DNA of 4,934 nt, from IMG/VR virus record IMGVR_UViG_2623620491_000007; one strand, written 5' to 3'. The notes beneath the pieces were generated by a model. That model was not told the DNA's origin. It searched no databases and worked only from the letters and a program-made list of their open reading frames with translations. The position numbers and the translations under genes were made by a program. Origin of the DNA: a virus. Taxonomy: Duplodnaviria > Heunggongvirae > Uroviricota > Caudoviricetes. Numbering within the stretch: the first letter of the stretch is position 1; each line of letters begins with the position of its first letter. This document shows positions 229 through 3,618 of this stretch, piece by piece.

Positions 229-243
229 TTGCCGGAGGCGCTT

Positions 244-660
244 ATGGCAAAAGTATTTACACCAGAAGAGCGGGAAAAAATTAAAGGGCAGGTTGTTGAA
301 CTTGTACGTCTGAGCGGTCGCGAGACGTTACGGGCACTGGAGGCTAAAACCGGTGCATCAAGGTATTACATAAGCACTCTCGCCAGAGAACTGGTCGCCA
401 GTGGTGATGTTTACAATTCAGGCTACGGATTATTCCCGTCTGAGCAGGCGCGTAAAGACTGGCAAAACGCCCGCAAAAAACTATCCAGGGCAAAGGCGAA
501 GAAACCGGTTGTGGTTGATCCGGACCTTATCTGGTCATTACCTGACGGAGAAATACGTCGCTACGATAGCCGTCTAAACATAATCTGTAGCGAGTGCCGG
601 AAGAGTGAAGTTATGAAACGTGTACTGGCATTTTATCAGGGAAATCTTCGGTATTTATAG
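244..660 (+). CDS. ren: Ren-like protein (lambda Ren family, exclusion-associated), 138 aa from ATG 244
   Basis: C-terminal ...ICSECRKSEVMKRVLAFYQG resembles the lambda Ren C-terminus (...FKECRQSAAMKRVLAVYG...) as I recall it. SD GGAGG at 234-238 lies 5 nt before ATG 244; the ORF-track start at 229 is a TTG with no SD. An HTH-like segment GRETLRALEAKTGASRYYISTLARELVASG is present. Position after a replication-type gene matches lambda P-ren order. Confidence 0.55.
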   Translation: MAKVFTPEEREKIKGQVVELVRLSGRETLRALEAKTGASRYYISTLARELVASGDVYNSGYGLFPSEQARKDWQNARKKLSRAKAKKPVVVDPDLIWSLPDGEIRRYDSRLNIICSECRKSEVMKRVLAFYQGNLRYL

Positions 661-736: not shown

Positions 737-771
737 TCCGCTTTGTGCCAGAAGCGGAAGTTGCTAAAATG
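737..771. repeat. Left copy of a palindrome-containing repeat: TCCGCTTT-N7-AAGCGGA, then 5 nt, then CTAAAATG
   Basis: TCCGCTT (737-743) is the reverse complement of AAGCGGA (752-758), giving a 7 bp stem with an 8 nt loop; CTAAAATG follows at 764-771. The same blocks recur at 2959-2988. No T-run on either strand, so not an intrinsic terminator. Confidence 0.5.
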
Positions 772-1459: not shown

Positions 1460-2875
1460 ATGAGTAATCTTCCTACTACAGTAAATACAACCGCAGTAAC
1501 CACTGGTGTTGATAATTTCACAACGTCATTAACTACTTACCTCACCGATTTGAATCTTCCGGCAAAGGGCGTTTTAGTCGGCAATGATCAGAGGTACACT
1601 GTAATTGATAACTTCCCAAAGGTTATTGGTGGTATTGACAGTGCAAGGCGTTCAGATTCGTTATATCTATCAAAGTTTATTGCAGCGTGCGGCGCTGGCC
1701 TTTTTGATGCAGCACTCAATTTTTTATGGAATGAAACAGTAGTAAATTTGAGATGGAAGGTTTCCCTTAACGATATAGACTATTTTTATGACAGTATTGT
1801 CACTGACACAAAAAGAAGAGATAAGCTTAAAACTGTAGATGATTTAGTTAATATAGAGGAGTGGGAGCTTGTTAAGGGTTGCCACTTAACGGGATTACTT
1901 TCGGATATAGGTTTTAAACATCTTGATTATATAAGAGATATGAGGAACTGGGCTAGTGCAGCACATCCTAACCAAAGTCAGCTAACAGGATTCATGCTCA
2001 TCTCATGGCTTGAAACCTGCATCAAAGAAGTGATTGCGAAAGAACCAGAACCTTCTGCATTACAAATAAAGAGAGTACTATCTAACATCAGAGGCGCTAA
2101 CTTAGAAGGCGATGACTTAGCCCATATAAAATCTGCGATGGAAAGCTTACCTCAAGATGTTGTTGATTCTTTCTTAAGAACTATATTTGGGATGTATACT
2201 AATGATAACGCGGCTGTACAGGTTAAGAATAATATAAAAGGAATTGCAAAAAAATGTTGGGATCTTTCGTCAGAAACTACGAAGTATAGTTGTGGTATAA
2301 GATATCAATCTTTTGCAGCTAACGGAGAGAGAGCTAGGAAAGATGCGGCTAATGAGTTTTTAACTACTGTATCTGGTCTTCCATATCTTCCATCAGACTC
2401 TTTGGCTGTTGAAATATCAATCAGAGTGACAAATTTATACCAGGCCCATTTTGGATGGAATAATTTCCATAATGAACCTGCTCATGCATCCTCTTTGGCA
2501 GCATATATCTCCTCTGCTGGGAATGTCCCTGACTCAGTTCGATTTGAATATGTTAAGACTATAGTTTTGTGTTATTTGGGCAACAGCTATGGAGTGTCTA
2601 ATATGGCCGTTTCTTACTATGAAGAAATGATTGGTAAGTTCGGCGAGGCAGAGTTAAAAGAGTTCGTAAAAATAATTTATGATAAAGACGTGATATCTAG
2701 GCTTGCAACTCAAACATGTGCTTCTCGATATAAACATATAGCATCCAATTTTGTTAGCAGAACTACCAATCAAATAACCTCGCAAGCTCTTAATGCGATC
2801 ATAGCATCGACTGCTCTCCAGTTACCGAACCTATCGAAAGCAACGGCCTACGATAAACTTATTCGCTCATACTAA
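1460..2875 (+). CDS. Hypothetical protein, 471 aa, no recognisable catalytic or NTP-binding motif; candidate effector of a phage-exclusion/defence cassette
   Basis: Long uninterrupted ORF in AT-rich DNA; SD-like AAAAGGG at 1447-1453 lies 6 nt before ATG 1460; stop TAA at 2873-2875 is followed by an intrinsic terminator. Thr-rich low-complexity N-terminus (residues about 5-27). One R-x6-H element (R162...H169, RNWASAAH, nt 1943-1966) is reminiscent of, but not diagnostic for, HEPN-type Rx4-6H motifs. No Walker A, no nucleotidyltransferase, RT, TIR or Sir2 signatures seen by eye. Confidence 0.8.
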   Translation: MSNLPTTVNTTAVTTGVDNFTTSLTTYLTDLNLPAKGVLVGNDQRYTVIDNFPKVIGGIDSARRSDSLYLSKFIAACGAGLFDAALNFLWNETVVNLRWKVSLNDIDYFYDSIVTDTKRRDKLKTVDDLVNIEEWELVKGCHLTGLLSDIGFKHLDYIRDMRNWASAAHPNQSQLTGFMLISWLETCIKEVIAKEPEPSALQIKRVLSNIRGANLEGDDLAHIKSAMESLPQDVVDSFLRTIFGMYTNDNAAVQVKNNIKGIAKKCWDLSSETTKYSCGIRYQSFAANGERARKDAANEFLTTVSGLPYLPSDSLAVEISIRVTNLYQAHFGWNNFHNEPAHASSLAAYISSAGNVPDSVRFEYVKTIVLCYLGNSYGVSNMAVSYYEEMIGKFGEAELKEFVKIIYDKDVISRLATQTCASRYKHIASNFVSRTTNQITSQALNAIIASTALQLPNLSKATAYDKLIRSY

Positions 2876-2911: not shown

Positions 2912-2938
2912 AGCCCTCTCTATTCGAGGGCTTTTTTG
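2912..2938 (+). terminator. Rho-independent terminator ending the AT-rich cassette
   Basis: Stem AGCCCTC (2912-2918), loop TCTATTC, stem GAGGGCT (2926-2932), then TTTTTTG; it lies 37 nt after the TAA of the 471-aa gene. Confidence 0.65.
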
Positions 2939-2958
2939 TAGGAATGCTTAATTGAATA

Positions 2959-2988
2959 TCCGCTTTTCGCTCAAAGCGGACTAAAATG
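2959..2988. repeat. Right copy of the palindrome-containing repeat: TCCGCTTT-N7-AAGCGGA directly followed by CTAAAATG
   Basis: TCCGCTTT (2959-2966) pairs with AAAGCGGA (2973-2980) around a 6 nt loop; CTAAAATG at 2981-2988. Blocks are identical to the left copy at 737-771 apart from the loop and a 5 nt insertion in the left copy. Confidence 0.5.
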
Positions 2989-3286: not shown

Positions 3287-3405
3287 GCCTGCGGGTGCTT
3301 GGGGCTATCTGTCTCAGGCATGAACACCAAAAGGCAGATAGAGAAGAGCCCCAGTTAACATTACGCGTCCTGCAAGACGCTTAACATTAATCTGAGGCTC
3401 AATCT

Positions 3406-3618
3406 ATGAACGGCAAATCTAGGTTAGCCTCTTACGTGCCGAAAGGCAAGGAGAAGCAGGCTATGAAGCAGCAAAAGGCGATGTTAATCGCCCTGATCGT
3501 CATCTGTTTAACCGTCATAGTGACGGCGCTGGTAACGAGGAAAGACCTCTGCGAGGTACGAATCCGAACCGGCCAGACGGAGGTCGCTGTCTTCACAGCT
3601 TACGAATCTGAGGAGTAA
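3406..3618 (+). CDS. mok: Mok-like reading frame: in-frame N-terminal extension of hok whose translation enables hok translation (70 aa)
   Basis: ATG 3406 is preceded by GAGG at 3394-3397 (8 nt spacing) and runs in frame through hok to the same stop. This mirrors chromosomal mokC/hokC annotation, where both share a stop, as I recall it. Confidence 0.5.
   Translation: MNGKSRLASYVPKGKEKQAMKQQKAMLIALIVICLTVIVTALVTRKDLCEVRIRTGQTEVAVFTAYESEE
3463..3618 (+). CDS. hok: Hok/Gef-family type I toxin (small membrane-depolarising peptide), 51 aa
   Basis: Translation MKQQKAMLIALIVICLTVIVTALVTRKDLCEVRIRTGQTEVAVFTAYESEE matches the Hok/Gef/RelF family: hydrophobic transmembrane helix followed by the conserved TRKxLCE..R..G..EVAAF/VF..YE block. 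Closest to HokD/RelF and Gef from memory. SD AAGGAG at 3448-3453 lies 9 nt before ATG 3463; stop TAA 3616-3618. Confidence 0.85.
   Translation: MKQQKAMLIALIVICLTVIVTALVTRKDLCEVRIRTGQTEVAVFTAYESEE

Follow-up and report, generated by a model that had tools for sequence, protein, structure and literature searches.

The window analysed here is a 4,934-nt stretch of DNA from a virus of the Caudoviricetes (IMG/VR record IMGVR_UViG_2623620491_000007) and is part of a Rac-like lambdoid prophage of Escherichia coli. It was found to encode a 471-aa protein which, with a probability of roughly 0.6, is a stand-alone HEPN ribonuclease (RNase) of an unannotated family that acts in abortive infection. The predicted fold of the protein, an invariant R-x6-H motif and the location of the gene in a prophage slot that also houses known anti-phage systems all point to this function. 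The open reading frame (ORF) reported by a first-pass annotation, made from the nucleotide sequence only, was borne out by RefSeq, in which the same E. coli ORF is recorded as the hypothetical protein WP_073841078. Together with an upstream gene for a 4-fold beta-flower protein, it forms a 2.2-kb cassette (~737-2980) that is carried by 2 of 5426 complete E. coli genomes.

The AlphaFold model of the protein (predicted local distance difference test, pLDDT, 87.5; predicted template modelling score, pTM, 0.73) contains 28 helices, arranged in a HEPN domain followed by a C-terminal all-alpha domain (Table 1). HEPN domains are four-helix bundles in which the active site is located at the end of a helix and in the loop that follows it (PMC3710099). 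In the model, the core of the HEPN domain appears as a four-helix up-and-down bundle with a variable insert between helices 2 and 3, as is typical of the superfamily, with R162 and N163 placed at the end of helix 149-166 and H169 in the loop before helix 177-192. The spacer between R and H is 6 residues long in some HEPN families, and R is as a rule followed by N, D or H (PMC3710099). N163, the polar residue after R162, was invariant in all alignments, and the motif matches the definition given in PMC3710099 in both position and type. The same survey describes a conserved acidic residue in helix 2, near the motif and often within an Ex3[KR] pattern (PMC3710099). D83, which is 95% conserved and situated at the start of helix 82-103 (helix 2), is a candidate for this auxiliary acidic residue of the HEPN site, though no Ex3[KR] pattern occurs there. 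The fold comparison list included AF0298 (2hsb; 11.1), 2jpu (10.9), TTHA0636 (1wwp; 9.8), the sacsin HEPN domain (9.6), the HepT toxin (9.4), HI0074 (9.1), AbiA (9.1), MtlR (8.6), AMPylated HEPN toxins (8.2-8.3), Csm6 (7.8), LsoA (7.7), HepS (7.1) and AbiV (6.4), with Csx1 and Roquin also present.

The motif had been noted in the first-pass annotation as a single R-x6-H element, and it is indeed the sole R-x(4-6)-H in the protein. Shuffled copies of the protein gave 0.96 matches to this pattern per copy, with a probability of 0.63 for one or more. As about one match is expected per shuffled protein, the motif alone is uninformative, and its significance derives only from conservation and fold. 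R162, N163 and H169 were invariant in 42 close homologs (47-85% identity; alignment A1), across which the block HLDYIRDMRNWASAAHPN was nearly invariant, and these three positions were the sole invariant columns among 39 sequences reaching down to 22% identity (alignment A2). RN-x5-H was kept in 64/64 intact genomic homologs from many bacterial phyla and archaea. The loss of R162 or H169 among homologs, which the first-pass annotation had named as evidence that would tell against its proposal, was thus not observed, and its placing of the motif at the permissive edge of the HEPN pattern needs correction, as a 6-residue spacer beginning with N is a recognised HEPN variant. The accompanying statement that no other signature is present held for Walker A, HNH-like and GIY-YIG patterns, which were not found by regular expression; the one PD-(D/E)xK-like string that was found is a loose pattern match with no nuclease family match behind it. 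The Thr-rich N-terminus was also there as described (11 Thr in the 24 residues 6-29), though it is not disordered low-complexity sequence: it includes a confidently predicted helix (H10-30, pLDDT 87-91) with conserved V17, D18, F20, L24, Y27 and L28. The Thr richness is not common to homologs and is a lineage-specific trait of no evident significance.

Profile-profile comparison, a check proposed in the first-pass annotation, aligned the motif with that of a HEPN family. An alignment of DUF4145 (PF13643), which is a HEPN family associated with genes for restriction and defence, was built from a gene that directly adjoins a homolog of the 471-aa gene in Enterobacter. The hhalign comparison of the target family with this alignment gave 82% probability over 58 columns and a score of 40.0, versus 13.5 ± 2.5 (maximum 22.3) for column-shuffled controls (n=60). 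R, N and H were aligned, as were helices 3 and 4, with a two-residue insertion in the target family, which is Rx6H where DUF4145 is Rx4H. DUF4145 was the only family with a sequence-profile link to the protein; the DUF4145 proteins compared are ~190 aa long and are without its C-terminal domain. The DUF4145 Pfam model did not match the 471-aa protein at E up to 1, and DUF4145 was absent from the 25 most-matched families listed for 39 relatives (E up to 10). The only HEPN family among those 25 was Abi_C (PF14355), with weak matches in 2/39 relatives (best E 0.082), and a single AbiJ/Abi_C protein tried as a relative was rejected (hhalign probability 0.8%). Sequence-profile searches of the PDB with full-length and HEPN-domain alignments returned noise only (E 0.3-0.6).

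The HEPN interpretation of R-x6-H, put forward in the first-pass annotation as a possible sign of an RNase of the abortive-infection type, is therefore supported by the conservation of the motif, by the DUF4145 profile link and by the defence-hotspot slot described below, and the protein very probably contains a HEPN domain with an active-site-type motif. It has the structural and motif features of the superfamily and fell outside every curated HEPN family and PADLOC system tested. Among the effectors of prokaryotic immunity, HEPN RNases make up a major class (Cas13, Csm6, RnlA, PrrC, HepS), and the protein is best filed as the representative of a new, unannotated family inside this well-known class. 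A second conserved block, at residues 330-378 (nt 2447-2593), includes H330, N335, F336, E339, P357, G374, N375 and G378, positions with a conservation of 85% or more in sequences down to 22% identity; the block may serve as a site for a ligand or trigger, or form part of the active site. The possibility that the C-terminal half is a second, degenerate HEPN domain or contains an internal duplication was rejected at the sequence level (hhalign <1% for N versus C, 3.5% for C1 versus C2).

The proposed function draws on the published properties of HEPN enzymes, which are metal-independent endoribonucleases with a composite active site formed from two motifs (PMC3710099), and on two prophage HEPN defence systems, HepS (Gifsy-1 prophage of Salmonella; PDB 9oik) and Tha (Staphylococcus aureus prophages). 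HepS has been described as a single HEPN-domain protein, and in systems of this type one prophage HEPN protein senses a phage structural protein and cuts RNA. The 471-aa protein is likewise prophage-located and of single-gene HEPN architecture. R162-N163-x5-H169 is accordingly the predicted active site of a metal-independent endoribonuclease, and dimerisation is expected by analogy with characterised HEPN enzymes, two copies of the protein pairing their motifs to build the active site. The C-terminal domain (265 aa), with its polar cluster of H330, N335, E339 and N375, would act in auto-inhibition, holding the RNase silent, and would sense infection. Phage infection would then activate the protein to cut cellular or phage RNA (tRNA, mRNA or rRNA), leading to a growth stop of the infected cell and the phage, which is the predicted defence phenotype of abortive infection.

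Several known HEPN systems, namely HepT-MntA (a type VII toxin-antitoxin system), RnlA/LsoA, Csm6/Csx1 and Cas13, have as partners an MNT antitoxin, Dmd/RnlB, a CARF domain and CRISPR RNA (crRNA). None of these partners turned up among the window ORFs and the homolog neighbours examined, hence control is presumably built into the protein or supplied by the phage. The protein falls outside HepT-MntA in particular, the neighbours in the window being the beta-flower gene and hok/sok, with no nucleotidyltransferase gene beside the homologs examined.

The gene occupies a slot between the replication/ren-like (DUF977) genes and hok of Rac-like/lambdoid prophages. The left boundary site of the slot and its phage flank were found in 38 IMG/VR prophage contigs, with a right-type site at discrete distances, and eight different cargos were found between the sites (Table 1). 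Three of the seven alternative cargos are known anti-phage systems: a cyclic oligonucleotide-based anti-phage signalling system (CBASS), Tmn, and Hp1-3, which we take to be the Rst_3HP system. As the other cargos of the slot include known anti-phage systems, the 471-aa protein is a defence candidate. The slot is thus a defence hotspot, and the protein was not placed in a non-defence family, the other result against which the first-pass annotation had set its proposal. P2/P4 and other prophage hotspots are similarly fixed temperate-phage slots with alternative anti-phage cargos (PMC9122126), whereas the present slot lies between DUF977 and hok in Rac-like/lambdoid prophages and has two 22-nt palindromic sites that accompany the cassette onto plasmids and chromosomes. 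No published description of a slot delimited by these palindromic sites was found. In two prophage contigs (L117:3602-6605 and L103:2256-5259) the slot contains a 417-aa sister homolog, in front of which lie a 379-aa gene unrelated to it and a degraded piece of a recombinase gene.

Clustering at 90% identity gave at least 1722 clusters of relatives of the protein, and at 50% identity there were 1015 representatives; almost all are 410-490 aa long and none has a Pfam domain. Members were found in Enterobacterales, Pseudomonas aeruginosa (>1000 contigs), Vibrio, Acinetobacter, Bacillus, Clostridium, Streptomyces and Rhodococcus (Proteobacteria, Firmicutes and Actinobacteria), as well as in cyanobacteria, Chloroflexota, Planctomycetota and several archaea, with 40-66% identity to the E. 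coli protein; the distribution is patchy and mobile, and the family is unusually well conserved. Two more distant groups were distinguished. One, a plasmid subfamily of 476 aa and 29% identity, resides on plasmids of the IncF type in E. coli, Shigella and Klebsiella; the other is the 417-aa sister subfamily (25% identity; motif MRNHASPAH), which forms at least 435 clusters, all hypothetical. The protein had no match in Pfam or NCBIfam (Pfam E up to 1), and PADLOC-DB v2.0.0 matched neither the protein (E up to 1) nor seven diverse homologs (E up to 0.01). Its only PHROGs match was to the unnamed phrog_27609. No homolog was detected by tblastn in 50,697 deposited phage genomes, the family being seen in prophages and IMG/VR contigs and not in sequenced virions. 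Literature searches by accession, UniProt identifier and PHROG number returned no paper mentioning the family, and it was not found by accession or peptide motif among the validated HEPN systems of DefensePredictor, as far as these are covered by the accessible part of the supplementary text. One member, from an assembly labelled Chryseobacterium sp. 18061 (L017), is 66% identical to the E. coli protein, just as is that of Enterobacter hormaechei (L005), and both loci have the same 194-aa ORF downstream at identical coordinates; the L017 assembly may be contaminated or mislabelled.

Several observations weigh against an abortive-infection RNase. The DUF4145 link spans just 58 columns at 82% probability, and there was no sequence-level match to a curated HEPN family, a PADLOC model or a PDB chain. 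The family is named by none of the sources consulted, all of which say hypothetical. A lone toxic RNase would also need a means of being kept off. With 40-66% identity between phyla and as far as archaea, the family is more conserved than is usual for a defence gene. Lastly, the genes right next to distant homologs are in many cases housekeeping genes, which makes the defence-island signal outside Enterobacterales a moderate one. The neighbours of homologs otherwise include AbiJ/Abi_C, DUF6602, DUF4145, CBASS, HigBA, prokaryotic Argonaute (pAgo), Old, TIR effectors and components of the methylation-associated defence system (MADS), which speaks for a defence role.

The high conservation, which suggests a conserved cellular target, would also fit a HEPN RNase that serves the stabilisation, addiction or competition of mobile elements (plasmids, integrative and conjugative elements (ICEs), satellites) rather than phage defence. 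The family is indeed found on plasmids (50 of 90 matching plasmids are conjugative, conjugative IncF plasmids among them), on an ICE and in integrase-linked islands, and often adjoins the toxin-antitoxin genes RelB, HigBA and hok/sok. However, no conserved antitoxin gene accompanies the family at the homolog loci examined, CBASS, Tmn and Hp1-3 are cargos of this very slot between the two sites, and HepS and Tha provide a precedent for prophage-borne HEPN defence, and a role restricted to mobile-element maintenance or competition is considered unlikely.

The gene immediately upstream encodes a protein with a Pfam match to PF21784 (Bflower, E 8e-28), named 4-fold beta flower protein in RefSeq; the fold was first described in 2023, with no function assigned. 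The protein has a basic, Ser/Arg/Pro-rich C-terminal tail (SRPSRKFRPSRLSRKSRPAKLSRNSRPSRPSRQTRWSERS), in which a direct repeat with an 18-nt spacing occurs (1241-1270), and its relatives are nearly absent from deposited phage genomes. The two genes share a strand, a cassette and a single terminator, with 78 nt between them, and they were linked in 8/8 loci in which the 471-aa protein is at least 98% identical, as would be expected of an obligate two-gene toxin-antitoxin or sensor-effector pair. Against such a pair, a Pantoea plasmid was found to have an intact 471-aa gene (96% identical, annotated coding sequence) next to a 36-codon remnant of the beta-flower gene, homologs of ≤66% identity have no adjoining beta-flower gene and varied neighbours, and the 417-aa sister subfamily is paired with the unrelated 379-aa gene. 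The beta-flower protein was rejected as an obligate partner on these grounds, and a pair of this kind is very improbable. Since the beta-flower gene is limited to the close clade, truncated in Pantoea and absent beside distant homologs, the family works without a fixed partner. A non-catalytic HEPN domain that serves ligand or nucleic acid binding in a regulator or scaffold, like MtlR or nucleotidyltransferase-attached HEPN domains, is hardly to be expected, as such domains characteristically lose Rx4-6H (PMC3710099) and this family has no invariant residues other than R, N and H.

The cassette is bounded by two 22-nt palindromic sites (Table 1), which are a direct and an inverted repeat of each other, with identical 7-nt arms (TCCGCTT/AAGCGGA) and differing 8-nt spacers. 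TCCGCTT-N8-AAGCGGA had two exact matches in the window versus 0 expected. Non-phage copies of the cassette are homologous to the window from 736-745 up to 2981-2985; with ~94% nucleotide identity, such copies were found on an Enterobacter chromosome, where the tail gene of a P2-like prophage is adjacent, and in metagenomic contigs. In eight prophages with a different cargo, conservation stops 0-6 nt past the left site and resumes at the right site. On IncF plasmids, the homolog of 29% identity is likewise flanked by the palindromic pair, with the left and right spacers of the window, and in Enterobacter the sites form a tandem series with gene cassettes lying between them. A tyrosine recombinase of 200 aa, whose copies are 91-98% identical to one another, is encoded within or next to site-bounded cassettes on a plasmid, in an Enterobacter island and in a prophage, and none is present in the window; it is a candidate for the enzyme that acts on the 22-nt sites. 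As the spacer of the left site is unlike that of the right site, a double exchange, in which each site pairs with its own type (left with left, right with right), is suggested in preference to excision, and the palindromic sites may be a cassette-exchange system. A rival explanation is homologous exchange by RecET/Red at short conserved boundary sequences.

The insert has a G+C content of 35-39%, versus ~50% in the flanks; this and the rarity of the cassette among E. coli genomes count in favour of the defence reading. In the downstream backbone, sok was identified by an Rfam match (3293-3468, 104 bits) and Hok/Gef by a Pfam match (3406-3618, E 3e-23). Just before the left site, at 700-736 of the window, the backbone contains TTGACA and TAGAGCT separated by ~15-17 nt, and the same flank is present in the viral loci L089-L126; this pair might be a backbone promoter reading into any cargo of the slot, although a consensus scan made no call. 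The phage record PP818812.1 (Actinobacillus phage vB_Apl-pPE4) shares 95% nucleotide identity with the E. coli Rac-like backbone of the window, which is odd given the Pasteurellaceae host of the named phage. In five cyanobacterial loci a 142-aa retropepsin-like aspartyl protease gene lies 330-400 nt downstream of the homolog, and its product matches the PADLOC candidate PDC-M52B (E 1e-50) and Pfam Asp_protease_2. The family was for this reason considered as component A of the candidate system PDC-M52, and this was rejected, as the homologs match no PADLOC model.

Table 1 Features of the window, slot cargos and related loci. Positions without a locus prefix are those of the window; L numbers denote loci.
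Feature	Position or extent	Strand	Remarks
DUF1627 gene			C-terminal end only; first in window gene order
DUF977/ren-like gene	229-660		Next after the DUF1627 end, before the low-GC insert
Left 22-nt palindromic site	737..758	+	TCCGCTT-TGTGCCAG-AAGCGGA
4-fold beta-flower protein, 133 aa	980..1381	+	From ATG at 980; ORF list starts at GTG 974
471-aa all-alpha protein	1460..2875	+	ATG start
HEPN domain	1631..2074	+	Residues 58-205
Predicted catalytic motif R162-N163-W-A-S-A-A-H169	1943..1966	+	Translation RNWASAAH
C-terminal all-alpha domain	2075..2872	+	Residues 206-471; fold family unassigned
Terminator-like intrinsic hairpin and T-run	2912..2940	+	AGCCCTC-TCTATTC-GAGGGCT, then TTTTTTGT; 37 nt past stop codon
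Right 22-nt palindromic site	2959..2980	+	TCCGCTT-TTCGCTCA-AAGCGGA
hok/mok/sok type I toxin-antitoxin locus	3293-3618		Directly downstream of the cassette slot; conserved prophage backbone
phrog_1813 gene, then DUF1367/NinB-like gene			After hok/mok/sok in window order
Slot cargo	1466 nt left-to-right		12 loci; NUDIX protein and second gene
Slot cargo	1707 nt left-to-right		3 loci; single unknown 356-aa protein
Slot cargo	2222 nt left-to-right		1 locus; beta-flower and 471-aa protein cassette
Slot cargo	2994 nt left-to-right		1 locus; CBASS: SMODS cyclase (E 5e-144) and SLATT 2TM effector
Slot cargo	3251 nt left-to-right		1 locus; 379-aa gene and 417-aa sister homolog
Slot cargo	3333 nt left-to-right		3 loci; Hp1-Hp2-Hp3, three PADLOC defence models
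Slot cargo	4108 nt left-to-right		7 loci; Tmn, YobI-like NTPase (E 1e-66)
Slot cargo	5803 nt left-to-right		1 locus; 379-aa and 417-aa genes and further genes including the 200-aa recombinase
Further 22-nt sites	L008:5397, 9151; L010:5276, 7499, 10024; L009:7487; L088:1103; L089-L126		L089-L126 are 38 viral loci
200-aa tyrosine recombinase	L008:7521-8123; L005:5043-5645, 8226-8828; L103:5396-5995
Recombinase remnants	L117:4762-4983; L103:3878-4099		Distant relatives in L040, L042
Cyanobacterial aspartyl protease	L051:7672-8097; L052:7741-8166; L057:7694-8119; L069:7650-8075; L074:7742-8167

A broader proposal joins two ideas, that the family is a very widespread new class of single-protein immune sensor-effectors in bacteria and archaea and that its cassettes are moved by an undescribed exchange system. 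The C-terminal cluster (H330, N335, E339, N375) would recognise a conserved phage or cellular signal and switch the HEPN RNase on, and the two 22-nt sites with the 200-aa tyrosine recombinase would swap defence cassettes among lambdoid prophages, plasmids and chromosomes in a natural form of recombinase-mediated cassette exchange. Taken jointly, the two are doubtful. If it holds that the defence cargos of the slot move together with their palindromic sites, this could explain the exchange of such cargos between unrelated replicons. The family itself is frequent in P. aeruginosa and among the IncF plasmids of E. coli, Shigella and Klebsiella, and the profile libraries searched do not detect it; the fold, the three-residue catalytic prediction and the hotspot context make the stand-alone HEPN RNase a directly testable candidate system, and the assignment would allow thousands of genes to be annotated.

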